A stretch of DNA of 64,000 nt from Sphyrna mokarran (Eukaryota), in assembly GCA_024679065.1 (NCBI GenBank), contig JAGIQG010000011.1, positions 80,042,001 to 80,106,000 of the forward strand, in the 5' to 3' direction. The position numbers and the translations under genes were made by a program. Each line of letters begins with the position of its first letter. Positions within the stretch are counted from its first letter, which is position 1. The notes below the pieces were generated by a model that was not told where the DNA came from, made no database searches, and was given only the letters and a program-made list of their open reading frames with translations. Positions 4,346 to 63,310 of this stretch are shown one piece after another.

Positions 4346-4761
4346 AGAGTCCCTGGATGCAATTTTACCACTTTGCCTGCCCTAATTTTGAGGTTTGCAG
4401 AACGGAGTTCTCCATTGTCCTCAAATGGGATTTTACGAGCATTGCCCAAGCAAGGTTGTAAAATCCCGGCCCCCATCTCTGTTATTTTGTATTATTAAAT
4501 CCGGAACAAATTAAGCTTTGGATTGCTGGTATCAAGTGTTCCCATTCTTTGTGCAATGTATCAAAAGCTTGAACGTTCAAACAAATGTCCATAAACAAAT
4601 GACAGAAGGCCGGAGCTGGGAAATATATCACTTGGGCTTCATGACACAAATAACGCAGACTGAGACAGCAACAATTTGTTATCAATAATAGATTTCAGCA
4701 TCTTTCATCCAGTTAGGAAGCATTTGGAAGCAAAGCTCCCACTAAAAAATTACAAACTCAC

Positions 4762-4861
4762 GTTGTACTTAGCAGCCATCTCCCGCCCTTGTTCACTTGT
4801 GACTTTTCGCAAGTGCATCAGATCAACCTTATTGGCCACCAGTATCATGGGGAAAGAGTCT
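4762..4861 (-). CDS. MRAS: MRAS coding exon 3 (NKVD motif)
   Basis: Hand translation: (R)[33 protein letters not shown]. 100 nt; acceptor TTGCAG, donor AAC|GTGAGT. Confidence 0.98.
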
Positions 4862-5559
4862 CTGCAATAAAATAAATAGGAACACAGATTAACTGGAGGC
4901 ATTATATGCTTGACAACGCTCAGAGAGAAAGGTCATTGAAACTAATTGACTTTCTTCCATTCAACACACATAAAGTACCATGTTGTCAATAAAGAGTAAC
5001 CTTTGCATTTATAGAGCCTGTTCCGCATGAAAATATCTGGAAAGCGTTTTGCAAAATGAAAAAGGTATATGAAACACCAACTCTTGCGTCAGCATTAATC
5101 AATCAAGGATCGCAATCCATCGATAAGACTGGTTCTGCATTTCCTCCAAACAATAGCTTTATTCATCACTTGTAGTGTTACTGAGACATGCAGACCAGTA
5201 GGTTGTTCAAAGGTGAACCAGTTGAGTGGGGTGCTATCTTTGGCGATGCCAATTTTTATTTGCAAAGGTGAAACTCAATGCTGATTCCCCTGTTTTTAGC
5301 AATCCAAGCTGGAGGTTGTGCCTTTGGAAAAACACCACCCTCAACTGGCCCATAAATCTTTCCCTTCCATTCTCACGCCATCAGCTAAAATACAATGAGA
5401 TACCAGATGCCACCCTTGTAACCACAATTAGCAGGAACCACAATCGAAGAGGAGAGAATGAATACAAGGAGATAATCAGAAAGGAAGAAATGTTTGCAGA
5501 TCACTTGGAGGTTTGAAGGACTTGTTCCTGTAATGTACTGTTCTTTGTTCTTAAACATA

Positions 5560-6330
5560 CATAGAAAATAGAAGCAGAAGTAGGTTATTTGGTCCTTTGT
5601 GCCTGTTCAGCCATTCATAAGAGCATACCCAGATCCCACCTTTTCCCCTTGATCCCTACAGCCCCAATAGCTATTTCTAATTTCTTCTCAAAATCGCACA
5701 ACATTTTAGCCTCAACTACTTTCTATGGTAATGAATTCAGCACTCACTGGGCAAAGGAATTTTTCTCTTCTTCATCCTAAAGGTTTATCTAATCTTCAAA
5801 CTACGACCCCCAGTTCTGGATTCCTCCACCATTGAGAACATTTTTTTCTGAATCTACCCTGTCTAATTCTGATAGAATTTTGTAAGTTTCTACGAGATCT
5901 CCTCTGACCTTTCTAAATTCCAGTGAATGTAATCCTAACTCACTTAATCTTTCCTCAGATGACAGGCCTGCCATCATGGGAATCAGCCTGGTAAATCTTT
6001 GCTGTTCTCCCTCTATAGCAAGGACATTCTTCCTCTGGTAAGGACACCAAAGCGGCGCACAGTATTCCAGGTGTGGTTTCACCAACATCCCATACAATTG
6101 CAGTAAAACATCCTTACTCATATACTCAAATCCTATGAAGGCCAACATACCATTTGCCTTTTTTACTTTCTGCTGTACCTGCACACTTACTTTCAGCGAC
6201 TGATGCACGAGGATACCAAGGTTTTGCTGAATTTCCACTTCCCACAATTTACAGCCTTTTTTATAACAATCACCCTTCCTATTTTTGTGACTGAGGTGAA
6301 TAACCTCATATTATCCATTTTATACTGCAT
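5560..6330 (-). mobile_element. CR1 (HER1-like) LINE 3' fragment
   Basis: ORF 5801-6247: LGILVHQSLKVS..VKKANGMLAFI..LVKPHLEYC..QRFTRLIP. Confidence 0.92.
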
Positions 6331-7377
6331 CAGGTCATACATCTTCACATGAAAATACAGAGTTGGATAAATGTAGATAAAACAAAATGGTCCTTTCTAT
6401 TTAGGATCACTGACCTGTGAACAAGATATTGAAGTTTTTAGACCATTTACTTTGCTTAAAGCTGCTGTGAATACCAGTTTAAAATTCTCTTTTAATCAGA
6501 GACCACAGGCAAAATTGAACACCATTTCCAATTAAACAGCTAAGAATCATTTTCTACTTTCCATTTGCTTTACAGACCAAATCCAAGGAATATACTGAGC
6601 TTCAGTTTCACTGCGTTCACGGTCACGGATTTACCTTGTGAAATACTGCCTCCAAAGCAGTGTATTTACAAGGAGAACTGATGACATTGCTGCGAGAATG
6701 TAAGATCTTCAGCAAGACAAATGATGTACGGGTCAAGTGGATCGGCCATGCTAAATTGTCCTTTAGTGTCAGGGGCACTAGCTAGTGTAAATATATGGGG
6801 TTATGGGGATAAATGGGATTATGGTCTATGCAGATTCGATGGGCTGAATGGCCTCCTTCTGCACTATAGGGATTCTGTGAACTCCTGAGTCTTCAAAGCA
6901 ATTTTGGCAGTTTGTTGTGAAATCACGTTGCAGACGGGCAGGCAGAGTTTGGTGTCGGCATTGCCTGCTTTCAACCAAGTGTTCCGTGGCTGGGGTCGTC
7001 AGTGGGAAATAAACCAAGCCTCATGGACTTGCAACATCATCGAAAAGAAACTGATCAGCAGCCTTAATGCACCCTTTGTTTTTGTTGAAAATTTCATTTG
7101 ATATTCCTGCCCTCAATTATTTCCAAATGGAATTTCTACAGCACAGGCTCTCAAATTCACTCTGCTCCAGGGCTTCTTGATATCCCCATTTCTCTAACCT
7201 CTTCCCGGGAACCAACTAATTCAAGATGCTGTTCTCACCTTTCTTGATACATAATCCTGGACAATGGGTGTTGTTTACTTGACCATTTGGAATACCATAA
7301 CCATGTTAAGTCTATTCTGATTTGAACGCAAGGTCTTAGCTGTGTTCACTTGATTTGAATACTCTCCTTGGTTGCTA

Positions 7378-7548
7378 GGTCTAGAACTAGGAGATCAGGA
7401 TCTCAGGATGAGAGTCGAGAGTCAAGGATCATTGTCTCAGAGTAAGGGTCTAGAGAAAGAAGTCATGGCCTCAGGTTAAAGGTCTAAAGCCAGGGGTCAT
7501 TGTCTCTGGGTAAGGGTTTGGAGCCAGGGGTCAAGGTCTCAGGATAGG
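7378..7548 (+). repeat. Minisatellite, 5 x ~34 bp, derived from a CR1 segment
   Basis: Units like GGTCTAAAGCCAGGGGTCATTGTCTCTGGGTAAG, followed by normal CR1 3' sequence. Confidence 0.75.
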
Positions 7549-8774
7549 GGATTAGCCATTAGGGTGAAGGGGAGTGGTTTCTTCACTCTAAGGGTTGTGA
7601 ATCTTTGGCAATCCTGTACTCCAGAAATCAGAGGATGATTGGTTTTTGAGTACACAGGACAGAGATTTTGGACTTTTAAGAGAATCAAATAAAATGGTGA
7701 TACAGCAGGAGAGTGAAGCTGAGGTAGAACAGCAGCCTGTTCTATGAACCATAGAAATGGCAGAAGGAGGCCATTAGCCCCATCTTGTTCATGCCAGCCC
7801 AAGGTGGCCCAGGTGCCCTTTCTAATCCCATCTTCCTGCACCTGGTCAATAGCCCTGCAGTTTATAACACTTAAGGTGCAGATCCAGGTATTTAAAAAAA
7901 AGAGTTTAATGTCTCTGCCTCCACCACCAACTTGGATAGTGCATTCCAGACACCCAGAATCTTTTGTGTAAAATGTTCTTCCTGAAGTCCCTCGAGAAAC
8001 CACACAGTCTAATCCTGCTCCTATTTCTAGTTTTGTTAAACTATTCCGTGGAAAGTGGAACTTGAATGCAATGACTAATTGCTGTGCAGCTGACATCAGC
8101 ATAGATGTCCATTTACCCATCGGACAAACAGGTTCTGGGGAGATGTAACACTGATGTGGAGATGCCAGCATTGGACTGGGGTAAACTGATGTAACATTGC
8201 CAGAACAATTATACTTGCATTCATATAGAGCCTTTCACAACTTCCTGATGTCTCAATGTTCTTGACTGCCAATAAAATACACCTGAAATAAGAACACTGC
8301 TGTAATATAGGAAATGAGGCAGCAAGCATTTGCACAGCAACTGCTCACAGCAATGACTACTGTGACATAGTGAAAACTATTTTTTCCTTGCACGTTATAC
8401 AGACAAAATATAGAGAAGGAAAGGAGAGTATGCAGAATGTAGTGTTACAGTGACAGCTAGGGTGTAGAGAAAGAGCAACTTAATATACGGTAGGTCCACT
8501 CAAAAGTCTGACGGCAGCAGAGAAGAAATTGTTTTTGAGTCAGTAGATACGTGACCTCAATTCTGTATTGTTTTCCTGACGGAAGAAGGTGGAAGGAAGT
8601 ATGTCCAGGGTGCGTGGGGTCCTTAATTATGCTGGCTGCTTTGCTGAAGCAGCGGGGAGTGTACGCGGAATCAGGGATGTGTTGCAGTGAAGTTGGTTGA
8701 GGATCATGACATTAGGAAAACTCTCCTGCTCTTCTTCAAATAGATATTTTATGTTTATCTGACAAGGTGGACAG

Positions 8775-9059
8775 TGGCATGGTGGCACAGTGATTAGCAA
8801 TGTTGTCTCACAGCTCAGATTCGATTGCCGGCATGGGTCATTGTTTATGTGGAGTTTGCACATTCTTCCCGTGTCTGCGTGGAATTCCTCCAGATGCTCT
8901 GGTTTCCTCCCACAGTTCAAAGATGTGCGGGTTAAGTGGATTGGCCATGCTAAATTGCCCTTTAGTGTCAAGGGAATAGGGCCTGATGGGGGGGGGATTG
9001 TGGCCAATGCAGACTCGATGGGCCGAATGGTTTCCTCCTGTACTGTAGGATTCTATGAC
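8775..9059 (+). mobile_element. HE1-type V-SINE nested in a DeuSINE
   Basis: Full head, V-domain and tail. Confidence 0.9.
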
Positions 9060-10103
9060 ATCAGTTTAACACATCAGCACTGCTGATTGTGCAGCACCCC
9101 TTCAAAGTTAAGTGTTTAAATCTCTGGAACGAGGTGCAGACCTTCCAATTCAAAAGGCAGAAGAAACTGGAACCAGGATTGTCACTTAATTCCATTTATG
9201 GGCAGGCCACATTTCTCAAGCTAAAAATTCTAAAGAGATTTTCTGGCACATCACTGAAAGAGCTAATTTTAGCGACATAAATAACAACCTTGTTGAAATT
9301 TGACTGCGATGCTTGTCAAAACTTGCTGACGGGTAGAGAGAGACTGATGTAAGGTGTTATAAATGTTATACATGAATATACAGGGTCAACAGAAAGCAGG
9401 CTTGTGCAGTTGCAGGTTTCTGAGTAGGCAGAAAGGTCAGGCATTTGCAAGGGATTGAAATTAAGTGAGAAGGTGAACCCAAATCCTGTAAAAATTTCTG
9501 AAACCCAAAGCTGATTTTAGTCAGGAGAACGGTTTGAAAATAAATTTCACCTTGGAAACAAATGTGGGCAAGAACAGAAGACAAGTACATTAAATCTACA
9601 CACATTGAAGTATTTGAGACCCTGAGATCCTGATAATTGATGACCAGACTTGCCCAATTGTCTTGCTCACGGTTTGGCCAGGGGCTAAGAAATGGCCAGT
9701 GCGATGCCTCAGGATCAGTCTCTCTCTACCTGTCAGCAAGTTTTGACAAGTGCCGCAGTCAAGTATCAATAAGGTTGTTTTTTTTATGTTGCTAAAATTA
9801 GCTCTTTCAGCGATGTGCTAGAAAATCTCTCTAAAATTTTTAAACTCGAGAAATGTGGCCTGCCCATAAACGGAATCAAATGCAACCTTGAGTCCAGTCT
9901 CTTCTGGCTTTGAATTGGAAGGTTATGGATTTGCACCCCATTCCAGAGACTTGAACACTTAATCTTGAGGGGGATGCTGCAGAGTCAGCAATGCTGATTT
10001 TAGATGAGTGTTAAACTGGGGTCATACAATCCTACAGTTTAGAAAGAGGCCAATCGACCCATCGAGTCTGCGCTGACCACAATCCTACCTAGGCCCTATT
10101 CCC
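8972..10103. repeat. Diverged inverted duplication, arms ~8972-9348 and ~9714-10103
   Basis: For example CTTGTCAAAACTTGCTGACGGGTAGAGAGAGACTGAT versus ATCAGTCTCTCTCTACCTGTCAGCAAGTTTTGACAAG; colinear over the whole arm. Confidence 0.9.
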
Positions 10104-11229
10104 ATGCATTTAATAGTAAACAAGAGCTAATCAAGGCATATCCTTTCGATGACTGAGGTTTTTCTGGGCTGAAGCCACACTAAAAGGATACTTCTAACTC
10201 CTACAGAAACCATCTACCAATGATTCCAACTGTTTGAGAGAACTGACACATGTTTCATCTGCTCAGAGATTCCATACATGGGATCATTCAGGACCAAGCA
10301 ACCCGCTTGATTGGCACCATGTCTACAAACACCCACTCCCTCCACCAGCGATGCTCAATAGCAGCAGTGTGTACTATCTACAAGATGCACTACAGCAAAT
10401 CACCGAAGACCCTTCGGCAGCATCTTCCAAACACACAATCACTTCCATCTAGAACGACAAGGGATGCAGATACATGGGGACACTATCACCTGCAAATTCC
10501 CCTCCAAGTCACTCACTATCCTGACTTGGAAATATATCACTGTTCCTTCACAGTCACTGGGTCAAAATCGTGGAATTGCCTCCCTAATAGCAATGTAGTT
10601 CAACCCACAGAACATGGGCAGCAATTCAAGGTGGCAGCTCATCACCTCTTTCTCAAGAGCAATTAGGGATGAGCCAGTCAACCGCACCCATGTCCCACAA
10701 ATGAATAAAAAGATTCACATCAATGACTATGCAACAATATTAGAAGTTTCCAGGAAATAAAGAATATACAAAAGATGTTCAATACAACATCTTTTCAGTT
10801 CAGGACCAGTTCAATGAACTTCATATGTTCAGAATGCTAGATTCTAACAAGCTACCTCATTTTCTATTAGCATCTACTTAGTTTCAGCAAAAAAACTGAC
10901 CACTAACTTTAGATCTCAGTGAAAATATACAAATTGATGGGTGGGTGAGTGGAATCGGCTGCTGTCGGTGGTGGTGGAGACAAATTCATTAGGGCCTTTT
11001 AAGAGGCCTCTGGATGAGTACATGGGATTTAATAGGATTGAGGGTTATAGGTAAGCCTAGTAAATAGAGATAAGATCGATCCAACTTGGGGGCCGAAGGG
11101 CCTGTTTCTGCTGCAATTTTTCTACGATTCTAAACTGCTGATCGTTACCTAAATGAAAGTAAACCTGAAGATTTTTAGCATTTTGGAATTCAGCAAAGGA
11201 GGACCAAGGAACTGAAAAAGGAAATAGAG

Positions 11230-11780
11230 TAGGAAATGAACAAGAAACAAAAATGGCTGTAAAAGCTTCTCAGATGGAGACAAGCAGAGACAACAACATT
11301 TATAATGGGGAATAAGTAAATGGTAGAGTAACTAAATAAACGCTTTTGTGCCTGTCTTCACCGACAAAGATACAAAAGTCCTTCCGGGAATACGAGAAAG
11401 CCAAAGCAGTAGCAAGAATGAGGTACTGAAAGGAATTAATGAAGCAATACTTGAGAAATTAATGGGATCGAAAGTTGATAAATCTCCTGAACTTGATGAT
11501 ATACAACTCAGAGTGTTGAAAGAGTTAGAGATGGTGGATGCGCTGGTGGTCATCTTCCAAAATTCTGCAGATTCTGGAATGGTTCCTTCGTATAGGAAGA
11601 TAACAAGTGTAACTCCAGCATTTAAGGAAGGAGGGAGAGAGAAAATGGGGAATACAGACTTATTAGTCTGACATCAAGAATAGGGAAAATGCTGGACTCT
11701 ATTATAAAGGACGTGATAACTGAAAATAATGATAGGATTGGGCAGAGTCAATATAAATTTATGGAAGAGTTATCATGTAT
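11230..11780 (+). mobile_element. CR1 LINE fragment (RT N-terminal region)
   Basis: VDKSPELDDIQLRVLKE..EMVDALVVIFQNSADSGMVP..VTPAFKEGGREK. Confidence 0.9.
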
Positions 11781-12894
11781 GTTGCTAGGACAAAGGATTA
11801 AAATATGTTCATATTAATAATAGATGAAAACACTTGAAATGTATTATAACATCATTGCCTGCTGTCTAACATGGAGGGCATGAGACCATTTTAAAATCAG
11901 ATTAACAACTGCATTAAAAAAGTTGGCAAAAGAATGTCAGCAAAGCATGGACATGTTTAGCTCTTGATTTCAACATTGCTCTCAAGTTTATAATCCTCCA
12001 AGATAAAGTCTCTATAGTCCCAGATGACTATAGGCCTCCTTTGAGGAGAAGAGTTGACTGGTGATGATTTTAACCTGAGGATCACCATACCTTAGGCAAA
12101 GGGGGCCGAGAAGCCAGGGCCTTCATGAATAACCTCACTTGGTACAGGAATGGAACCTGTGCTGTTGGCATTGCTCTGCATCACTAACCAGCTGTTCAGT
12201 CAACTGAAAAGAAACCCAACTCCAAAACTGCTTCCAAAAGGAAGCAAATGATAAAAAAAATTCCTGCAGTTTCTGACTAATTGTACATCAATGGAACCCA
12301 TGGCTTCGAGTTGAACATGGCTTATATTGTTGGAGACAGACCCGAACCAGGAAATTCGGAAAACCATAACTCCTGGTTTCCAGAGAAACTAAGACCCCAA
12401 AACTGAGATTGGAAAACAGCTGAAACTGTTTGAAACCAGATTAAAAAGTTCACAGCCTTCCGAGCTCAGATGATGATCCCATTGAAGAGTGCAGAGGCTG
12501 GATATCAGAGCTGGGGAGTGGCAAATGTATTGCAGGTGCAATTGTTTCTGTTCTTGGATCAGCCATGATCTTCCTAAATGATGGAAGCAGCCCCAGCATA
12601 ACCAAGGACCCCATGCACCACGGACATACTCTCACCTTCTTCCGTCTGGAAAAAGATACACAAGTTTGGGGACACATACCAACCGAATCAAGAACAGCTT
12701 GTTCCCTGCTGCCATCACTTTTGAGCGGACCTATCATAGGTTAAGCTGAATTGTCTCTACACCCTAGCTATGACTGTAACACTACATCCTGCACCTTCTC
12801 CCTTCCTTTTCTATTTATGGTATGCTTTGTTTGTATAGTGCGCAAGAAACGATACTTTTCACTGTATCCCGATACAATAATAAATCAAATCCAA

Positions 12895-13196
12895 TTACTT
12901 GGGGACACGGATTTAAGGTGCAAGGGACAAAGTGTAAAGGAGATATACAAGGCACATTTTTTTTTTTTTTTTTTACGCAGAGTAGTGGGTACCTGGAACT
13001 CGTTGCCGGGGGAGGTAGTAGAGGCAGATACAGTAGTGACTTTTAAAGGAGCACCTTAACAAGTACATGAATAGGATGGGAATCGAGGGATATGGTCCCC
13101 AGAAGGGTAGTGGGTTTCGGTTAAGTCGGACAGCGTGGTCAGCACAGGCTTGGAGGGACAATGGGCCTGTTTCTGTGCTGTAATTTTCTTTGTTCA
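12895..13196 (+). mobile_element. CR1 3' end (similar pieces ~7750-7990, 10935-11130, 21030-21460, 23870-24450, 34165-34300, 39520-39710, 44915-45145)
   Basis: GHGFKV..FFTQRVVG.WNSLPGEVVEA..FK C-terminus plus GGGCCTGTTTCTGTGCTGTA tail. Confidence 0.85.
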
Positions 13197-13329
13197 ATGC
13201 AAGGGGCTGAAACTCCTGCTCCTACTTCTGATCTCTATTGGTGTACTTGGAATGCATGTCTAACATCTTCCTGAATTTTAAACTGATTAGTTTTTTCCTT
13301 TAAAGTGGATGGGTTAACACCTTTATAAT

Positions 13330-13520
13330 AAAGGCAAAACACTGTGGAGGCTGGAATTTGAAACAAAAACAGAAAATGCTGGATCTCACAGCATCTGTAG
13401 AATGAGAATATAGGCAATGTTGCTGGTCTGAATGACCCTTCATCAAACTCTGCTCTGACACAGGGTCATCCAGATTCAAAATGTTGGTTCTAATCACTCC
13501 ACAGATGCTGTCAGGTCTGT
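13330..13520. mobile_element. Family-2 palindromic element (also ~18135-18293, 22725-22822, 47620-47712, 54437-54597)
   Basis: ACAGCATCTGT...ATGACCCTTCATCA / TGACACAGGGTCATCCAGA...ACAGATGCTGT fold-back; recurrent AAACAAAAACAGAAAATGCTGG end. Confidence 0.75.
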
Positions 13521-13634
13521 TAGGTTAACACCACTGTTGGAATGGTAAAGGAATATCAAGTTCCATCAGGCATTCAAATGCTAATGTTTCAAACCTTCGT
13601 TCCAAGTGAGGTGTTGGTTTTCAGGCAGTGTTGG

Positions 13635-14100
13635 GAGAGTAAGAAGTCTCACAACACCAGGTTAAAGACCAACAGGTTTATTTGGTGGCATGAACTTTTG
13701 AAGCGCTGCCCCTTCATCAGGAGAGTTAGGTTCCCGAACAGAGCATATAGACACAGGGTAAACTTTTGACAAAAGCTTACCTGGACTCAAAATGTCAGCT
13801 CTTTTTTCTCCTTATAGATGCTGCCAGACCTGCTGAGATTTTCCAACATTCCCTCTTTTTGATGATGTATAGATACAGACTCAATTGCAAGATAATGGTT
13901 GGAATGCGAGTCTTAACAAGTAGTCAAGTTTTTACAGGTACAGACAATGCAAGTGGAGAGAGGATTAATCACAGGTAGAAGAGATGTGAATTGTCTCAAG
14001 CCAGAACACTTGATAAGATTTTGCAAGCTCAGGCAAGTTGTGGGGGTTACACAGATAGTGTGACATGAACCCAAAATCCCAATTAAGGCCATCCTCATGT
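13635..14100 (-). mobile_element. Penelope-like element 3' fragment with decayed hammerhead motif; interrupted by a family-2 fragment (~13765-13860)
   Basis: 13870-14100 is the reverse complement of 52770-52985 and continues into CTGATGAAGGGGCAGCGCTTCAAAAG...AATAAACCTGTTGG. Confidence 0.8.
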
Positions 14101-14130: not shown

Positions 14131-14219
14131 AAGAAGGGGGAGTGAGAGGGCTGTAGCGGACTGAATTAAGAAGAATGACTCACAAAATAAATTAAAATAT
14201 CGGGTTCTGCAGACACTCA

Positions 14220-14459
<240 letters not shown>

Positions 14460-17322: not shown

Positions 17323-18416
17323 AAATCCAGTATGCCATTATCAATTCAGTCTCACATAACCTATTTTAAAAAAAATTCAAATTACATTTTTTAAAGATGA
17401 TTAAAAACTATAAAAATTACAGGAGTTAATCGTGGCAATCTCAGATAGCTCAAATCATTTCCCACAAAAGATTTATATTGCGAGATACAAGATGATAGTT
17501 GCTCAATCAGGCATCCTTGGCAAGATGTCTCACTTGAGGTTAATGCTGATTGGGGAATGAGAGTGGGAAGTCCATTCTTCCTATTTAAAAGCAATGTGCT
17601 CCACCTCCAAAATCTGCAATATGCTTCCCTCCATGTGAAGCTCTGATGGAAAGGGCAAAAATCGAGAGCATTCCCTTCCATCAAGTATCATTCCGACAAG
17701 AACACTGCACAAATATAGCCATTCGAAACTTGTGGGGGAAGCCTCTTGTTTTGTCACCTCTGCTGAAGGTGGTCATTAGCGACAAAGATCTTTCATTTTC
17801 ATATCACCCAGAAGAATAGCGCATTGTTCAAGCCGCTTCTCAGTGAAACATTACTTCAAATAAATCTCTGCGCACTCAGTGTTTCACTCAAATGGTTGAG
17901 TTTATTCTAAAAGGAACATTTTCACACTGTAATAACTCAGAACTTCTAGCTTCTTTTCAGGCCAGTGATGAATACTAACTTGAAAACCCAAGGTAATAAA
18001 AAAGGTGAAAAGATTGGGAGCAACAACTTTAGTTAGGGAGTCCAGGACAAAGCGGCACCAGTCTGAAGTTAAAGTCAGGAATGAAATTAGGAAATAACTA
18101 TTCATGCAAAAGGTTGGCAGAATTTGGAACATAAAAGGCAAAATACTGCAGATGCTGGAATCTCAAACAAAAAATGCGGGAAAATCTCAGCAGGACTAAC
18201 AGCATCTGTGGAGAGAGAGTATTGAGTCAATATTTTGAGTCTCAATGACTCTGTCACAGCCCTGATAGAGTGTTCCAGACTTGAAACATTGGCAGAATTT
18301 GGAACTCTACACAAACGGCATTTGTTGCTATGATACATGTCAATTTAAAAATCTAAGATTGATAGACTTTTATTAGCCAAAGCCATTAGGGAAGATTCGT
18401 TATTCAAGTATATCGA

Positions 18417-18522
18417 CATGTTAAAGTCCAACACAGTTATTTGGTAGCACCTGTTCGTCTTTAACCCGGAATTGTGAGACTTCTTACTCTGCCCACCCCA
18501 GTCCAACGCCAGCATCTCTACA
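18417..18522. mobile_element. Penelope-derived terminal fragment with 13-bp TSD
   Basis: Ends CCCCAGTCCAACGCCAGCATCTCTACATC; TCAAGTATATCGA at 18404-18416 and 18523-18535. Confidence 0.75.
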
Positions 18523-19091
18523 TCAAGTATATCGAAACTGTAAAACTTTTTTGTGGCACCTTAATGACTAAGTTCAGTGCTAAAATGCAGATGAGTCAGC
18601 GACAGTGTGTCTGGCAAATTAATAATTTTTTTCAAAAGTTTATTTATTAGTGTCCCAAGTAGGTTCACATGAACACTGCAATGAAGTTACTGTGAAAATT
18701 CCCTAGTCGTCTGTTCAGGTGCACCGAGAGAGAATTTATTTCGGTCAATGCATCTAACCAGCACGTTTTTGGACTATGGGAGGAAACCTATGCAGACATG
18801 GGGAGAATGTGCAAACTCCTCACAGATAGTGATCCAAGCCAGGAATCAAACCCAGTCCCTAATCACTGTGCCATCTCCTTTGGAGGAGAAGTAATGAATT
18901 GGCAGATATATTGAACTAATAGTGTGTATGCTTTCATCGTTGTACGCATAAGTAACATCCCAGAAATCATTATAAATCAAGAGATGTAAGAGAGGGAGGA
19001 ACTTAAAATTATTCAGGACAATACGCTTTTTCAGAGAGTAGGTGCAGACTCAATGGGCTGAATGGCCTCCTTCTGTATGATAGGGATTAGG

Positions 19092-22211: not shown

Positions 22212-22340
22212 GGCTGGAATTCTCTGACCTTGCCTGCAGTTGGGATCGTCTGCTCCCGCTGATGTGAATGGAGATTTGCCCGAGTGCCAAATTCTCCCGT
22301 CTTGCAGTGGCAGGGGCGAATGAGGCAGAGAATTCCAGCC
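22212..22340. mobile_element. MITE with 15-bp TIRs and 3-bp TSD (Harbinger-like); related ~35305-35420, 60403-60529
   Basis: GGCTGGAATTCTCTG / CAGAGAATTCCAGCC perfect TIR, flanked by ATG on both sides. Confidence 0.7.
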
Positions 22341-22787: not shown

Positions 22788-22825
22788 AGGCAATGTTTCG
22801 AGTCTCAATGACCCTTCGTCAGTTA
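22788..22825 (-). ncRNA. Minimal hammerhead ribozyme-like motif (family 2)
   Basis: Minus strand: CUGACGA A GGGUC-AUUGA-GACUC GAAA CAUU GCC; CAUU is probably CpG-decayed CGUU. Confidence 0.5.
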
Positions 22826-23118
22826 TGCCAAGTTCAGTTGCAAGACAACCGACCATATCAGGTGAACAAAAGTTCTGGTGGCCAAAATGAGAAGGAAGAA
22901 ATTTTTTTTAATTTTAGGGTTAAAGTTAAAGTTAAAAGGTCCGTTGTCTAGTATTCTGCTGGACTGCCTTGAAATTTTTGATAGTAGTGAACAGGACTGA
23001 GACATCTGCGGGTGGAACTCTGCACTTGTATAAGTTAGCTTATGTCAAGATCCACTGTATGACAGGAGTGAGGAAGTAGGACTGAGCATTATCCTATTGC
23101 ATGTTCCCAAAGTACAAA

Positions 23119-23345
23119 TGATGTGGAGATACTGGCATTGGACTGGATAAACACAGTAAGAAATCTCATAACATCAGGTTAAAGTCCAAAGGTTTATTTG
23201 GTAACAAACCCCACTAGCTTTCAGAGCGCTGCTCCTTCGTCAGGTCACTCATCTGACAAAGGAACAGTGTTCTGAAAGCTAGTGGGGTTTGTTATCAAAT
23301 AAGCCTTTGGACTTTAACCTGGCGTTATGAGATTTCTTACTGTGT
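23119..23345. mobile_element. Fold-back Penelope-derived mini-element with two head-to-head hammerhead-like cores and 12-bp TSD
   Basis: Arms 23151-23243 and 23253-23345 are near-complementary; TSD CCAAAGTACAAA at 23107-23118 and 23346-23357. Confidence 0.85.
23210..23246 (-). ncRNA. Minimal type I hammerhead ribozyme-like motif (family 1)
   Basis: Minus strand: CUGACGA A GGAGC-AGC-GCUCU GAA AGCU A GUG. Core nucleotides intact, palindromic AGCU stem III. Confidence 0.6.
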
Positions 23346-24195
23346 CCAAAGTACAAAGACAGCTTCATTTCAGAACGAGACATTTTACTTGTAATTTACT
23401 GGAAACAATATAGTTAGCAATATAGCCAGTGTGTGAGGCAATGTTTATGTCTCTGGCGAGGTTTCCAATAGTTACGCCTGCAATATGCAACTGATATTGG
23501 TACAGAGATGGTTTCATAAATAGGAACTGCAATTGCTTTAAAAAAACAAGTGAATGAAATATTTTATTTCATTTAGTTCTCACGTGGCAATGTCAAACAT
23601 TTAGCCTAAAACTAAAGAAAGGCGAATGGTCGAAGTAGATGATGTGGAATATTAAATCAATTTTAATTAAAAATAAATGACCTCTACTTTAAGCCTGTAG
23701 GCTCATTGGTCAACAGGGGTCATGCTATGACAGCTGAAGGATGGAGCAGTGCAGGAGTCAGTGACCAGTTAATAGGTGGCATGTTCCCCTCAGCGAACCA
23801 CTCTCGCCTTCAGCTGCAGGAGGTCAGCCCTGCTGTAGGGAGTCAATCGTTCACTATGCTGTCAAACAATGAACAAAGAATGACACAGGACAGGAGCGGG
23901 TCCCTTGGCCCTTCAAGCCCACGCCGATCGTGATGTCCTATCTAAACTAGGAAAACTTCCTGCCTTCACTTGGTCCATATTCCTCTATTCATTTACCCAT
24001 CCAGATGTCTCTTAAATGTTGCTAATTTGCTTACTTCCACTATCCACTATCTCCTCTGACAATGTCTTCCAGCTACCCACCACTCTCTGCATGAAAAACC
24101 TCCCCAGCACATCTTCCTTAAGCTTTCCCTCTCTCACCTTGAACCTGTGCCCTCTTGTATTGACACCCTGGAAAAAGCCTCTGGCTCTCCACTCT

Positions 24196-24394
24196 GATGT
24201 AGAGATGCCGGCGTTGGACTGGGGTAAACTCAGTAAGAGGTCTGACAACATGTATCCCTGTGTTGATATGTGTGCTATTGCAGACCAGAACACCTCATTC
24301 GCCTGACGAAGGCACAAAGGCTGAAAGCTAGCAGGTTTACTATCAAATAAATCGGTTGGATTTAAAATTGGTGTTGTCAGACCTCTTACTGAGT
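24196..24394. mobile_element. Penelope-derived mini-element with inverted ends, inserted in a CR1 fragment
   Basis: AACTCAGTAAGAGGTCTGACAACA / TGTTGTCAGACCTCTTACTGAGTT inverted pair; CTGACGA..GAAAGCTA at ~24303-24330; TSD TCTCCA(C/T)TCT. Confidence 0.75.
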
Positions 24395-25254
24395 TCTCCA
24401 TTCTTTGCCCCTCATAAATTTTGTAGATCTTTATCAGGTCTCCCCTCAGGCACAAGATGACTACAATACCACACCCAACCAGTGATTTGCCAACATATGC
24501 AAGCGATATTAGATATGTCGCTTTGGTGTGGCTGTTGACCTCAAGATGGCTGCCCCACTCCAAAGCTTCAGTAGAAAATCCAGCCTGACATTGCAATACG
24601 ATACTGAGATATTAAACAGACAGGCAGCATCGCTACACTATTCTGAAAAACATTGGGAGGTTTTCCCTGACACCTTGAATATTTATCTCCCAAACAACAC
24701 TATTGATTATTGTCACTCCCAAATGCAAGACAAATTGCAAAGAAAATGGTTGCTAGTTTGCTACACTCTCCCATCATCATTGTGTGTTTACAAGCAATGA
24801 GGAATAGTCACAAAGGTTTTCTAATTTAACAGGATTCTTTTGTGATAAGTGAAAGAATTCAAGTGAAACACATTCGATGTATCATGCATAGCTCGTGTTC
24901 AAGCTGGACAAATATGTCTAAATGTATGATAAGAGAAATCAAACGCACCATCAGTGCCTATGATCAGACAATTGCAATCTTCCTCCTTGGTATTGTTGTG
25001 TTTTAAAATCTCTGATCCTTTTTCGACCAGTTTGCTTATTCCAATGTTTTACCCCGGTGCCCTCCTTTGCAAAGAGAGGTTACAGCAAATGCTTTGCCTG
25101 GAGGCTACATTGTCGTGCAATTATTCCCACACCCAGAATTTTAATTTACCAACTCCCACTACCTTATTTCATGTAGAATTAAGTCAGATAATGCAAACCC
25201 TCTTTGGCTGAACATCAGATTATTTTATGGATTTAATAGAGAAAAACACGCACC

Positions 25255-35594: not shown

Positions 35595-35816
<222 letters not shown>

Positions 35817-43070: not shown

Positions 43071-44539
43071 TTTAAACTTTATCACAGCCCATTTGTTATC
43101 AACCTTTCATCCTTGTCATTGTTGGAGTAACTAAGTCTAAAGGTGACAACTTTCTGGCCTCTCTTCCCCCACAAATATCAACTCATCCCAAAACCTGCAG
43201 TCAGCATCCCATTCTGCATGAGTTCCCACTTGGTCCACAATGGCTTCTTATTCTCCCTAATACCTCAAAAGTCAACACCGTCATGTTTAAAAACCCAGAA
43301 CCCCTCATCATCTGTTCAGAAGTATCAAATAAATCGGTTGGATTAAAAATTGGTGTTGCTAAATTCTTACAGGAGTACAAGCCCATCTTCCCTACACTCT
43401 GTATGTCTGATATTAACCTCTTGTACATCACGCTCTCTCTCTCCATCATTGTGTGTTTCGCATTCTGGAAGTTGTTCACTGAATTCCTTCATCTTCTTTA
43501 TGACCTTGGTGGAAGAGGTGGAGCGAAGGAACCTAATATTCACGATAGGCACAGACAAACGTTTTGACGGATAAAAATTTTAAATAATATCTCACTATCC
43601 CTTATTTCCATGCATCTTTGTCGTGCCTTGAGACAACTTTCTATCAAAAGAGAGCTCATAAAAAAGCCATTCTTGATGCTCCGGTGAACGAAGTAACCTG
43701 GGATTTAAGAATTGGGGATTAATACTTAACTCCTCAACTCAGCAAACACAATTTTGACCCAAAACTATCAATGGAATAGATTAGTTAGAAACCACGTATT
43801 TCCCAAGAGGAAGGAATTAAAGTGCAGGCAATTTTCTGCATGTTAAGCAAACATCAACATTTATTCAATTCTGTACAGAGAGAGAACAACCACACAAGAT
43901 ACTGGGCAGATTATGTATACAGTAACATCTGTCTGTATAATCTTCAACTTTGATGGCGTGGTAGCCAGAATTCTTATATAAATGGCACATTTGACCAATG
44001 ACTCATTTTATGTGTATGAAACATCACATAGGACTAGCGAGAATCTCAGAGACACCATCACAGTGACACATTCTCAAACAGCAACAGGCAATGTTTCATC
44101 TATTTGAAGAGGAACACTTTAAAAACGTGTAGGTGGAAAAAGACTGTTGCCCATCAAGAGTGCTTATTTGAATACGACATTTATATTGTTACGCAATCAA
44201 GATCCCTTCTTATAAATACAGACAGTGAATGTCTATACCTTTAATGTACTGAAGATTGGAATTTACATCAGCTAACACTTCAGCTGATTTGGGCAATTTG
44301 GGGGTTTTATTCTGCTTTTCTCAGCAACTATGTTTAATATCAGGTCATCCTCATTTATAAAGGGACAGCTAAATAATGTGACATCAGTATGTCAGGTGAA
44401 ATAGTCAGAAATAACACATTACTAATAGGGTTTTTCTGGATCCCAGGAGTATAGTACTGATGAACGCCCAGAGTCAGCTTTCAATATAGCCCAACTTGCA
44501 TTCATATAGTGCCTTGAAATGTAATCAGGAGATATCCAA

Positions 44540-52235: not shown

Positions 52236-52349
52236 CTTTGATCTTCTATACTCATGAGAATACAAGCTCTGTTTATGCTGCTTGACTTCATAATATACTC
52301 CCAGTATTATTCTGGTAAATCTATGCTATATTTAGATAAATTGACCTTT

Positions 52350-52985
52350 AAGGGTTCCCAGCCAGGCCAATTGCCAGCCTTCAGGAGAACAGTGACCACA
52401 ACACCATACACCCTGCCACAGCAACCTCTGCAAGACGTGCTGGATCATTGACATGGATGCCATCATCTGACACGAGAACACCATGCACCAGGTACATCGT
52501 ACATACACTTGTAGCTTGGCCAACGTTGCCCACCTGAGACGCTGCAGGAAATGATGTCCAGAAGCACGGTATATTGGGGAAACCACGCAGGCGCTACGAC
52601 AATGGATGAATGGACACCGCTCAACAATCACCAGGAGTGTTCTCTTCCTATCGGGGAACACTTCAGCAGTCACAGGCTCTGATTTTCGGGTAAGCATTCT
52701 CCAAGGCAGCCTTTATGCCACACAATGATGCAGGATCGCTGAGCAGAAACTGATAGCCTAAGTTCTGCACACAATCGTGATACTGGGTTCATGTCACACT
52801 GTCTGTAACCCTCAAGACTTGCCTGGGCTTGCAAAATCTCACTAACTGTTCTGGTTTGGAGACAATACACACCTCTTTAACCTGTCCCTCTCTCCACTCA
52901 CATTGTCTGTACCTGTAAAGATTTGATGACCTGTTAAAACACACATTCCAACCATAATCTTGTAATTGAGTTTGTGTCTATATTT
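52350..52985 (+). mobile_element. Penelope-like element fragment (GIY-YIG endonuclease end + 3' region), decayed
   Basis: Translates with stops to PCHSNLCKTC..IDMDAII..YTCSLANVAHLRRCRK.CPEARYIGETTQALRQWMNGHRSTI, matching the PLE Cys motif plus the YIGET..L..R...H signature. Confidence 0.85.
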
Positions 52986-54654
52986 GGCAGCATCATCTGT
53001 GGTTATTGTCATTGCAACAAACTCTCAAAGAACATTTTGTGGAAATGGCACTCAGTAATTGAAATCAGCGACAATGTTTTCATATTCTGAAGAAGATCAT
53101 GATGGCACATTTGGTCATTAAATAATCATGTTGGTGCAATAGGATATGTACTTCTAAGGAAAGTTGTGGTTAACATGCATTGTATAGAGGGGATGTTAAT
53201 CTACATTTAAGAGTATTTTGCTTGACCCCCGTGTTCTTTTTATTCATTCATTGGGCATGGGTGTCACAGGCTGCACATCCCCATCCCTAACTGCCCTTGA
53301 AGGAACAGGTAAGAGTCAATCATTTCTGTGGGTCTAGAGTTACATATAGGCTAAGCCAGGTTAGGGCAGATTTCCTTCCCTAAATTATATTATTGAATCA
53401 GATGGAATTTTGCGACAACTGTCATTAGCCTTTTAATTTCAGATTTTTATTGAATTTGAACTTAACCATCTGCCATGGTGGGATTTGAACTGAGTCCCCA
53501 GGGTCTCTGGATCACATGTCCGATAACCACACCGCTATGCCACTGGCATCTCCATCTGTGCTTTGATGCTGATCTTGGAGGCTGATAATGAAAATGTTCA
53601 CTATGCCTCCTTCACTTTGATGAGTACTGACAGACAACATCAATGAAATGAAAAAGCAGTAAAATGTAACAAGCTGTTGTGTGCTGATGGTAAGCAGCTT
53701 TGGAAGAAATTGGGCAGACTTAGCGATCTCAGTATTGAAGAGCAAAAAGGACAGCATTTTTTATTCATTCGTGGGACATAGGCATCGCTGGCTGGCCAGT
53801 ATTTATTGTGCATCCCCTCGTTGCCTTTGAGAAAGTGATGGTGAGCTGCCTTCTTGAGTCGCTGCAGTCCATCTTCTGTCGATTGACTCACAATGCTGTT
53901 AGGGTGGGAATTCCAGCGACTACGAAAGAACAGTAATATACTTCTAAGTCAGGATGATGCGTGGCTTGGTGGGGAGCTTGCAGGTGGTGGGGTTCCTGTG
54001 TATCTGCTGCCCTTGTCCTTCTAGATGGAAGTGATTGTGAGTTTGGAAAGTCCTGTCTAAGGATCTTCGGTGAATTTTTGCAGTGCATCTTGTTATTAGT
54101 ACACACTGCTGTTATTGAGCGTTGGTGGTAGAAGGAGTGGGTGTTTGTGGATGCGGTGCCAATCAAGCAAACTGCTTTGTCCTGGATAGTGTCAAGCTTC
54201 TTGAGTGTTGTTGGAGCTGCACCCATCCAGGTAAGTGGGGAACATGTGGTCATTCACCATTTGTAGTGCATCACAATGATTAATTGAAGGCTTTTTGCAC
54301 TTACTGTTAGATTGCCATTGATATAGAACAAATCAACATAGTCAACACTGTCCCTGGCTTAGACATGCTGACATGAAATAAGAAAGCCCTCCATCCTCAA
54401 GCAGTGAACTTGTTCATCAGAGCAGAGAAGACGGCTCAAAACAAAAACAGGAAATGCTGGAAAATCTCAATAGGTTTGACAGCATCTAAAAAGAGAGAAC
54501 ACAGCTAATGTTTTGAGTCTGGATGACTTTTTGTCAGAGCCAGACTTTGAAATGTTGGCTCTGTTCTCTCTTCATAAATATTGTCAGACCTGCTGGCTGG
54601 AATTCTACTGCCCCTTCAGAAATGGGAATCGGAGCAGGTAAGGGGCAGACGTTG

Positions 54655-54905
54655 GGAAAGACTTGCAAAATCTCACTAACTTTCCTGTCTGGAAACAATA
54701 CGCATCCTTTTAACCTGTGCTTACTGCTCTCTCCACTCACATTGTCTATCCTTTAAGACTTGATCACCTGTAAAGACTCACATAGCAGCCATTACTCATG
54801 TGAATTGAATTTGTGTCTTTGTGCCCTGTTTGTGATCAGAACTCCCACCCACGTGATGAAGAGGCAGCCTGTTCTGTTAAAGCTGGTGCTGTGAGACTTC
54901 TTTCC
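54655..54905 (+). mobile_element. Penelope-like element 3' fragment
   Basis: Similar to 52825-52985 (CTTGCAAAATCTCACTAAC...CTCTCCACTCACATTGTCT). Confidence 0.75.
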
Positions 54906-61025: not shown

Positions 61026-61849
61026 GTGATGTGCTCAGGTGAATTTAAATATGCCAAGATGTTATTTCTTTGTGGAGTGGAGTAAATTCACCCATCTCGC
61101 TATGCCCTGGACAATGATTATCCTTCAACCAACAACTCAGAAAGGTGATCTGGTCACTCATTTCATTGCTGGGTGAGGAAGCTGGAAATGTACTGCTGTG
61201 TTTCCTACATTACATTAGATTACACTTTCAACTCACTTTTAATAACTGCTTAGCCCTGAAATCATGAAAGATACTAAATACATGCAAGTCTTTCAATTTG
61301 TTAATTCATTTTAATCAATCTAACCAAAGTAACAGACCATTGCATCAAGTCCAATATTGTATTTCCAAAGGAATTTGGAGTCATTGGTGCAAGTGCAATA
61401 TTAGGATAACTACAATACATAATTAGGAAATTCATGGAACAAGTTTGACATTTTTGTTCAATTTGTGAGATGTCAGTTTTGAAGAAAATAGCCAATGGAA
61501 TATTATCGAATGGATGACTAGTTATTTTGGTGTAATGAATTGAAGAGAGCATATTGACCAATGCAGCAGCTGATTTAACTGCTTTTTGAATACAATCTAC
61601 TCCTGTTAAAGACTCAAGTTTGACTCTGGCTTTAGGTGACTATCTGCGTGGAGTTTGAAAATTCTCTTCATGTTCGCATGGGTTTCCTCCAGGTACTCTG
61701 GTTTCCTTCCACGATCCAAAAATGCGTGGGTTGGGTTGGTTGGCTATGCTAAATTGCCCCTCAGTGCCAGGGGGACTAGCACCCCCTTCATCAGGTGAGA
61801 CTTCTTCTTGTGCCCACCCCAGTATGATGTTGGCATCTCCACACCTTGA

Positions 61850-63310
61850 TTTGTTATAACACAAAAGCAAGAAAGTTATACTTATTTTATGAGCCACTTG
61901 CTGAGGAATTAGGGATTCAGTCCTGGGCATCATGAGTAAGGAAGGACTAAAAGATCTTGGAGCTGCTGCAGAGGAGATTTACTATATTCCCAGGGATGTG
62001 ATAATTCACATCCCTGGGAATATAGTAGGAGAGAACATAGTAGGAGAGACTGGAGAAGCCACATTTGTTTTCCATGAAACATGGAGGGGAGAGGGATGTC
62101 AATGTGAGATTTAACAGAAGTGTTCAAAATCAATGAGAGAATAAATAGGAAGAATCTGGTTGTCATAGCAGCATGTTGATAACCAAAGGGCACAGATTGA
62201 AGGTAATTGACAAATAATCAAACCAGACATGAAGACAAAATGCTTTGTGCAGTGAAATAATCTGGCATACACCGCTTGAAAGGGTGTTGGGGACCCAACT
62301 AGTATTTTGATGCATGGGGTTATGGGGATAAAGGACTGGGTGGGATTGTGGTCAGTGCAGACTCAATGACCCTAATGGCCTCATTCTGTACTGTAGGAGT
62401 TTGTGAAGATTAGGTGGATTGGCTGTGTTAAATTGCCTTTTAGTGTCCCAAGATGTGTAGTTTTGGGGGATTAATGGGGCAAATATGTATTGTTATGAGA
62501 ATAGGGCGGGGAAGAAGGCATGACTAAGCTGGAGAATCTGTGCAGATTCGATGGGCCGAATGGCCTATTTCTGTATTATAGTGATTCCATTCTGATCTAA
62601 GAATCGTAAAATGATATGGATAGAATGAGACCATTCAGCATGCTGTAACTGTGCTTGTTCTTTATAAGAGCGACCAAATTAATTCTACTCCTCAGCTCTT
62701 TCCCTAGAACCTTTCAATCTTTTCCCTTTGCAGTATTTATCAATTCCCTTTTCAAAGTTCCAATTGAGTGGCCCATAAAAAAGGCTTAACTTTCTTACTT
62801 TTGTGTTGTATATGGGCTCTTAAGTCATAAAAAAATTTAAGATGTGCAGATGCCGGTGTTGTACAGGGGTGGACACAGTAAGAAGTTTCACCTGTTGAAG
62901 GAGCAGTGCTCTGAAAACTCGTGATAAAGTCCAACCTGGTGTTGTAAAAAATCAAGGATTCCATCTGCATTTTTAACAACTTTCTCAACTTGTCGTACCT
63001 TCGTCAGAGATTTGTGCATCTACATCTCCAGGTCTCTCTGGCTGTTTCTGCATCTCCTTTTGAAATCATAGTCAGTTTAATCTGCCCCCACTAATTTTTC
63101 CAACCAAAAAATGAATCACTTCACACTCCTCCGCATTAAATTTGATCTCCCAAGTGTCTGCCCATTTCAACAGTTTCTCTATAACTTCCTGAAACCTCCT
63201 CACTATTTTTTAGTTATGCATTTTGTGCCATCTGATTGTACAAGCCATTAATATATCGCAAAACAAAAATCAGTGGTCCTATTATTAATCCCTGGGTTAC
63301 ACCACATTAT
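61850..63310. mobile_element. Cluster of old CR1 fragments and SINE tails
   Basis: CR1-like segments on both strands; two HE1 tail fragments at ~62310-62595. Confidence 0.55.
62840..62950. mobile_element. Penelope-derived terminal fragment with mutated hammerhead core
   Basis: GATGTGCAGATGCCGGTGTTG tail, then TCAC CTGTTGA AGGAGC AGT GCTCT GAAAACTC GTGA. Confidence 0.7.

Follow-up and report, generated by a model that had tools for sequence, protein, structure and literature searches.

What is a 227-bp fold-back with a hammerhead ribozyme core on each strand doing in a shark intron, and how did its two halves come to lie head to head? With its target duplications, the insert occupies the interval between positions 23107 and 23357 of the 64,000-nucleotide stretch of Sphyrna mokarran DNA analyzed here (the window). 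The preliminary description of this locus took it for a mobile retrozyme-like unit, mobilized by a Penelope enzyme and with a ribozyme core on each strand.

Architecture and family of the insert

The insert sits between two copies of a 12-bp target-site duplication (TSD), CCAAAGTACAAA, at 23107..23118 (left) and 23346..23357 (right). The copies are identical at 12/12 positions, no further copy of these letters is present on either strand of the window, and the chance of finding them at one fixed position is ~1e-7; the duplication described as clean is indeed exact. Inside it, inverted arms at 23151-23243 and 23253-23345 are 91% complementary over 93 nt. Carried on to 23245 and 23251, respectively, the arms reach 95 nt with 9 mismatches, every one of which is a transition. 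The insert RNA folds at a predicted −161.5 kcal/mol (z −22.3) and 0 of 200 shuffles folded equally well, in agreement with the earlier view of ~93-bp arms that form a near-perfect hairpin. That view overlooked 32 nt at the left end (23119-23150) which have no partner at the right end.

We compared the window with the assembled contigs of four of 21 runs (X1, X2, X5 and X12; likeness 80), with 4,817-13,964 contigs per run on the stretch. The unpaired 32 nt are the natural continuation of the family, as 81 contigs of run X12 run from the tail-less end into the 23119-23150 sequence. Upstream of 23245, the family sequence also continues, as ordinary upstream pLTR, and agrees with the 5-nt hairpin loop (314 contigs of run X1). 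Because the family continues beyond both the tail-less end and 23245, the insert reads as two truncated pLTR ends placed head to head and not as a hairpin with a spacer. In the sense of the element, 23245 down to 23119 (the left part, 127 nt) and 23246-23345 (the right part, 100 nt) are the same sequence. The left part comprises an inverted, 5'-truncated pLTR copy (23151..23245, minus strand), which starts 2 nt upstream of its hammerhead core, and a 32-nt Penelope "tail", a 3' extension of the pLTR found at this end only (23119..23150, minus strand). The right part is a direct, 5'-truncated and tail-less pLTR copy (23246..23345, plus strand), which starts 7 nt upstream of its core and whose first 5 nt form the loop. 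Additionally, a base carried by family contigs at 23189/23306 is missing from both arms, which points to one template. On these sequence grounds, the fold-back very probably consists of two 5'-truncated, hammerhead-bearing pLTR ends of a very abundant Penelope-like family, head to head, old and dead. The Penelope-like origin proposed earlier is thereby kept: both arms come from the pLTR of such a family and were inserted with a target duplication.

The insert shows four marks of an EN+ Penelope-like element (PLE) insertion, namely a hammerhead pLTR, a head-to-head inverted truncated copy, a one-sided 32-nt tail and a TSD of variable length; for a fifth, a family that encodes RT plus a C-terminal GIY-YIG endonuclease, the window offers the endonuclease remnant described below. 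Similar to the inverted-pLTR insertions of EN+ PLEs described by Arkhipova et al. 2013 (PMC3846280) and Craig et al. 2021 (PMC8557442), the insert shows head-to-head orientation, 5' truncation, a tail of 30-40 bp at one end and a TSD of ~8-12 bp. Both of these sources present the head-to-head tailed layout as typical of PLEs, and a rotifer copy in PMC3846280 has an inverted pLTR, mostly head to head, with a 31-bp tail and a 9-bp TSD. Unlike the insertions described there, the direct copy here is also cut to ~100 nt, leaving no reading frame and a near-perfect hairpin. The insert is real, old and ordinary for its class, one of very many decayed copies.

MITEs are short and non-coding, with long inverted repeats and target duplications. 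The insert has all of these features, and identity as a MITE or fold-back DNA transposon is still scarcely credible. Its inverted repeat begins 32 nt inside the left end and so is not terminal, both arms derive from the 3' terminus of a retroelement family that is linked to a GIY-YIG remnant, and the duplications of sibling insertions vary from 9 to 13 bp. The one-sided tail, the retroelement arms and the variable TSDs thus largely refute this candidate. As a caution, such inserts resemble MITEs or double-ribozyme elements and are neither.

The GIY-YIG remnant, a broken endonuclease end with a CX4CX2C linker followed by a 3' region, lies at 52345..52982 on the plus strand. At 52.3-52.7 kb it carries the linker CHSNLCKTC and a YIGET motif, and it matches 4/13 candidate proteins at 66-68%, all four of them from the shark Mustelus asterias, in keeping with a shark host. 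Three of these four relatives were scanned and gave the GIY-YIG model PF01541 at 15.8-21.7 bits, under the curated cut-off of 22.6, and a Pfam scan of the remnant itself returned no match. The 210 nt downstream of the remnant are 81% alike to 14084-13868, which is in turn 75% alike to 54662-54818, and both of these copies continue into the hammerhead pLTR. This DNA similarity, via 13.6-14.1 kb and 54.7-54.9 kb, ties the endonuclease remnant to the pLTR through a chain of three decayed copies and not one intact element. A CX2-5CxxC linker ahead of the GIY-YIG domain marks the Neptune and Nematis clades according to PMC8557442, and CHSNLCKTC is such a linker; the family would therefore be of Neptune/Nematis type. 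No reverse transcriptase (RT) domain or intact reading frame of the family was seen in the window.

At least nine pieces of the family are present in the window. TSDs of 9-13 bp were recognized in five of the nine pieces tested (three exact, two with one or two mismatches) and none was found for the other four. The TSD-bearing pieces are 36, 109, 227, 201 and 107 bp long, with no second 227-bp layout among them. The head-to-head inverted, 5'-truncated layout is also found in the siblings at 18417, 24195 and 62840. The 201-bp sibling (24195..24395; duplication ~10 bp, 1 mismatch) combines a 57-nt inverted tail arm with a longer direct arm that holds an intact core at 24303. Its outer ends are those of the focal insert, its inner ends differ, and a different stem II surrounds the unchanged core. 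The 107-bp sibling (62840..62946; 10-bp duplication, 2 mismatches) is an inverted insertion with a direct arm from 3 nt upstream of a decayed core. The 109-bp inverted sibling (18417..18525) has an exact 10-13-bp duplication and lacks a hammerhead; its inverted arm (18417-18448) starts ~25 nt inside the usual tail-less end, indicating that the standard two ends are not used by every insertion. A tail alone makes up the 36-bp sibling (8152..8187, minus strand; exact 9-bp duplication).

Two longer copies join the element's 3' region to the pLTR. One, at 13638..14084 on the minus strand, runs into the same hammerhead pLTR and is interrupted by a second repeat, and the other, at 54662..54905 on the plus strand, is joined to a decayed hammerhead pLTR. 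Further fragments without a recognizable duplication lie at 61768-61845, which turns 5 nt upstream of a core, and at 43323-43374, which resembles the subfamily at 24195. Contigs from viruses, prokaryote genomes and metagenomes contained no match to a 28-nt pattern of the tail.

State of the hammerhead motifs

A minimal-hammerhead descriptor located sites at 23243 on the minus strand, at 23253 on the plus strand (with G8 relaxed only) and at 24303 on the plus strand in the 201-bp sibling. These are the only sites in the 64 kb, three with G8 relaxed and two without relaxing it, and all fall within this repeat family; 200 shuffled windows gave a mean of 0.03 sites. The two minimal cores reported earlier, one per strand, are thus real by descriptor, the plus-strand core once G8 is relaxed. 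The covariance-type search suggested at the time came back empty, with no match to any Rfam hammerhead model at E values up to 10 in the three stretches searched. Rfam matches to miRNA and snoRNA models were dismissed, with scores far under the gathering scores.

The minus-strand motif (23210..23245), which is in MRAS sense, is a minimal type I hammerhead with an intact core at 23243-23237, GAAA at 23222-23219 and a stem II of 5 bp. Its stem I has just 2 bp because the head-to-head junction cut it off; the predicted cleavage lies between 23215 and 23214. The "intact" core of the preliminary description therefore stands for the core sequence and falls for the motif as a whole. The plus-strand motif (23248..23286), also of minimal type I, has 5 bp in both stem I and stem II and carries G8>A at 23258. 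In the usual hammerhead numbering this is a core position, and the change falls in a CpG and is read as CpG decay. Both this core G>A and the G-C to A-U change in stem II are present as claimed, and the assignment to minimal type I, with the palindrome AGCU standing in for stem III, was right. We dropped the "compensatory" stem II change as a signal of selection, given a probability of 0.16 that 5 random changes in 25 nt alter the two partners of a stem II pair together.

Similar to the minimal type I hammerheads of metazoan PLEs (Cervera and de la Pena 2014, PMC4209133), the motifs show CUGANGA, an extra base before stem II, GAAA, palindromic bases for stem III and, on the plus strand, a stem I within the 4-5 bp of those motifs. 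That study reported minimal hammerheads paired on opposite strands in Schistosoma, at distances of 100-700 bp; its available text makes no mention of sharks. Unlike those pairs, the cores here are 9 nt apart, one without stem I and the other without G8. An active minimal hammerhead combines an intact core with both stems I and II, and neither motif does (stem I of 2 bp on the minus strand, G8>A on the plus strand). Even minimal hammerheads in general are reported as inactive as monomers and little active as dimers (PMC4209133), and a different change at the same position, G8C, abolished cleavage of the Anolis motif in PMC11167929. Cleavage as a dimer through a palindromic stem III had also been cited as a property of PLE hammerheads. 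The palindromic AGCU is there, and a dimer in cis is impossible because the cores lie on opposite strands.

Folding calculations point the same way. Forcing the hammerhead fold costs 53 kcal/mol on the plus strand and 44 kcal/mol on the minus strand, with partial transcripts behaving likewise, and the hammerhead pairs have an ensemble probability of 0.0, partial transcripts included. In the transcript of either strand, the core's own complement comes before the core. Both ribozymes are damaged and are predicted to be held in the hairpin, and hence to be inactive.

The genomic copies show no extra conservation of the core: CUGANGA, GAAA and AGCU together are kept in 2/7 window arms reaching the core, contrary to the extra CUGANGA/GAAA conservation that had been anticipated. 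If there is any bias, differences between the arms are more frequent in the hammerhead part (5/25 vs 4/70, p 0.05). Judged against other copies in the window, 7-8 of the 9 arm differences lie on the plus-strand arm (p 0.04-0.18). This is more lopsided than plain decay predicts and counts against our best explanation, set out below.

Age, recurrence and route of integration

Run X1 shows 0 differences over both flanks and both borders between flank and insert, and may come from the same sample as the window. In runs X2 and X5, contigs cross into the insert on either side, at a divergence of 8.2% and 7.6%, respectively, indicating that the insertion predates their split from this lineage. These values fit the 9.5% divergence between the two arms. 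Given the low mutation rate of sharks (7e-10 per base per generation in one species, PMC10587355), the insertion is likely tens of millions of years old. In run X12, a single contig crosses the site and has 26 letters there, against 253 in the window (23102-23354), exactly 227 fewer, and the insert is absent. This is not a clean empty site, as 14 letters were expected and neither flank alignment reaches into the duplication; the extra letters may reflect an altered target or an imprecise loss of the palindrome. The absence may be ancestral or a later loss, as the matches listed do not root the four lineages. The empty-site comparison suggested earlier thus gave a partial answer, X12 lacking the insert with 26 letters instead of 14 and X2 and X5 carrying it. 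The pattern of presence and absence makes the site usable as a phylogenetic marker.

Recurrence of the layout bears on whether the 227 bp ever moved as a unit. Among the 15 matches listed (with 35 more beyond these), the contig joints are all different, mostly with one contig per run. The focal junction is bridged by at least two X1 pieces among the 32 pieces listed (with 43,197 more beyond these), with at least 31 letters on each side and the same or nearly the same spacing; a third bridging piece has 22 letters. Each of the two pieces has 17 differences and so derives from another locus. Near-identical fold-backs therefore do recur, which counts against our best explanation. Summed contig depth reaches up to ~1e6 vs 10-16 in the flanks and was not taken as a copy number.

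These loci lend support to a non-autonomous fold-back family whose 227-bp unit, with a ribozyme on either strand, would be transcribed and then re-inserted by a Penelope enzyme. Additionally, a transcript of either strand would carry a pLTR 3' end, and non-autonomous PLE derivatives exist (PMC8557442; bioRxiv 10.64898/2026.07.22.740005). We consider such a family improbable. The layout is absent from 8/8 other family pieces in the window, the contig joints differ among the matches listed, and the cores, both of them damaged, are predicted to be sequestered. Moreover, arm ends that cluster a few bases upstream of the core would recreate equal spacing independently. Similar to non-LTR retrozymes (Cervera and de la Pena 2020, PMC7229834; bioRxiv 10.64898/2026.07.22.740005), the insert is short, non-coding and PLE-derived with a type I hammerhead. 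Unlike the insert, retrozymes are described in these sources as head-to-tail tandem repeats that give circular RNA; here we find a single inverted pair in which neither motif is complete. The mobile unit with a working ribozyme per strand is thus not borne out, as the siblings share the outer ends and not the internal junction and both cores are damaged. Its stated counterpart, a one-off inverted insertion, describes most of what we see. The exact layout is missing from the other pieces in the window (0/8), and about the same spacing recurs at no fewer than two other X1 loci among those listed.

The best explanation overall, to which we assign a probability of roughly 0.8, is a PLE pLTR pair placed between 12-bp duplications, likely in one event by two-strand priming, with the ribozymes predicted to be inactive. 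The priming route, taken by itself, is probable. A Neptune/Nematis-type RT-GIY-YIG protein would nick the two target strands 12 nt apart. The top-strand nick would prime at the outer RNA start site to give the tail-bearing cDNA, and the bottom-strand nick would prime 32 nt further in to give the tail-less cDNA. Both cDNAs would run through the uncleaved hammerhead and end 2 and 7 nt beyond its core, where they would be joined without microhomology and the gaps filled. The insert would then decay, and the hammerheads would be passengers of the pLTR.

Biochemistry from a related element is consistent with these steps. The purified PLE protein of Anolis is reported to cut and extend both target strands, to start reverse transcription at two sites bounding the tail and to prefer uncleaved RNA (PMC11167929). 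As expected of an uncleaved template, both arms of the insert pass through the cleavage site. Similar to Poseidon of Anolis carolinensis (Frangieh et al. 2024, PMC11167929), the family has its hammerhead ~100-130 nt upstream of two putative RT start sites that bound the tail, and the uncleaved RNA that serves as the template of Poseidon would have served here as well. The family would belong to a different clade from Poseidon, since it has the Neptune/Nematis linker, and the available text of the Poseidon study describes no reconstituted inverted products.

The same pair of pLTR ends could have arisen by another route, in which the inverted repeat forms by self-priming on an antisense template, as proposed in PMC3846280, or by some other template switch. 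Palindromes at inverted junctions are interpreted in this way in PMC3846280, and the rare variants common to both arms would also be explained by one template copied twice. We regard this route as rather unlikely. The loop is the sense sequence of the tail-less arm, with the tail on the opposite arm, and by the logic of the sequence the simple folding back of one cDNA cannot account for both features. Additionally, given sense RNA, the purified enzyme is reported to extend both strands (PMC11167929).

Under two-strand priming, the position of the inner ends may carry information of its own. Four of the seven window arms reaching the core begin 2-7 nt upstream of it, and several contig joints turn 2-4 letters past 23245, in a table that is reference-biased. 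We tentatively suggest that such hairpins could be the smallest Penelope integration product, two run-off cDNAs, one per target strand, both ending at the 5' end of a pLTR transcript that starts just upstream of the hammerhead. If so, two-strand priming and the transcript start would be recorded thousands of times as fossils in shark genomes, and head-to-head hammerheads would keep appearing with no need for a fold-back family that moves as a unit. How PLE inverted repeats and tails form is still called undefined in PMC8557442, and this family offers raw material for that open question. In the literature searched, we found no report of two-nick priming in PLEs or of this shark family, which may have an entry in Repbase, Dfam or article supplements.

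Host gene and neighboring repeats

The first coding exon of MRAS lies at 35622..35813 on the minus strand, with 63/64 residues identical to solved M-Ras. The four coding exons, all on the minus strand, are found at 35622-35813, ~14200-14380, ~4750-4870 and ~570-680. The insert falls between the first coding exon and the next one (near 14.2-14.4 kb) and is therefore intronic; with MRAS on the minus strand, the intact core is in the sense of its pre-mRNA, as stated in the preliminary description. An AATAAA occurs at 23193-23198 (minus strand) on the MRAS-sense arm, downstream of the hammerhead, and the other arm reads AATAAG.

Retention of the insert for a role in the MRAS intron, through a conserved sense core, a double-stranded RNA signal or a cryptic polyadenylation signal, is very improbable. 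The insert is common to two other organisms, 5/5 of the arm differences in the hammerhead part lie on the antisense arm (p 0.06), and the AATAAA is on the sense arm, all of which would fit such a role. Against this, the arm divergence is in line with the flank divergence, the sense core lacks a full stem I and is predicted to be buried, and a third organism manages without the insert.

Other repeats surround the insert. The 201-bp sibling at 24195 lies within the decayed end of a LINE-like reverse transcriptase (24012-24611, minus strand), which resembles CR1, with paralogues at ~12.9, 21.3 and 58.1 kb. A second repeat family at 22790-22822 (minus strand), 430 bp to the left of the insert, carries a hammerhead-like CUGACGA, a 5-bp stem II and GAAA. 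It is likely a second Penelope-like family, with related pieces at ~13330-13510, 13770-13860, 18140-18250 and 54440-54600. Lastly, a perfect 15-bp inverted repeat with its halves 99 nt apart occurs at 22212-22340, possibly a small DNA element, and a similar motif is found at ~54593-54610.
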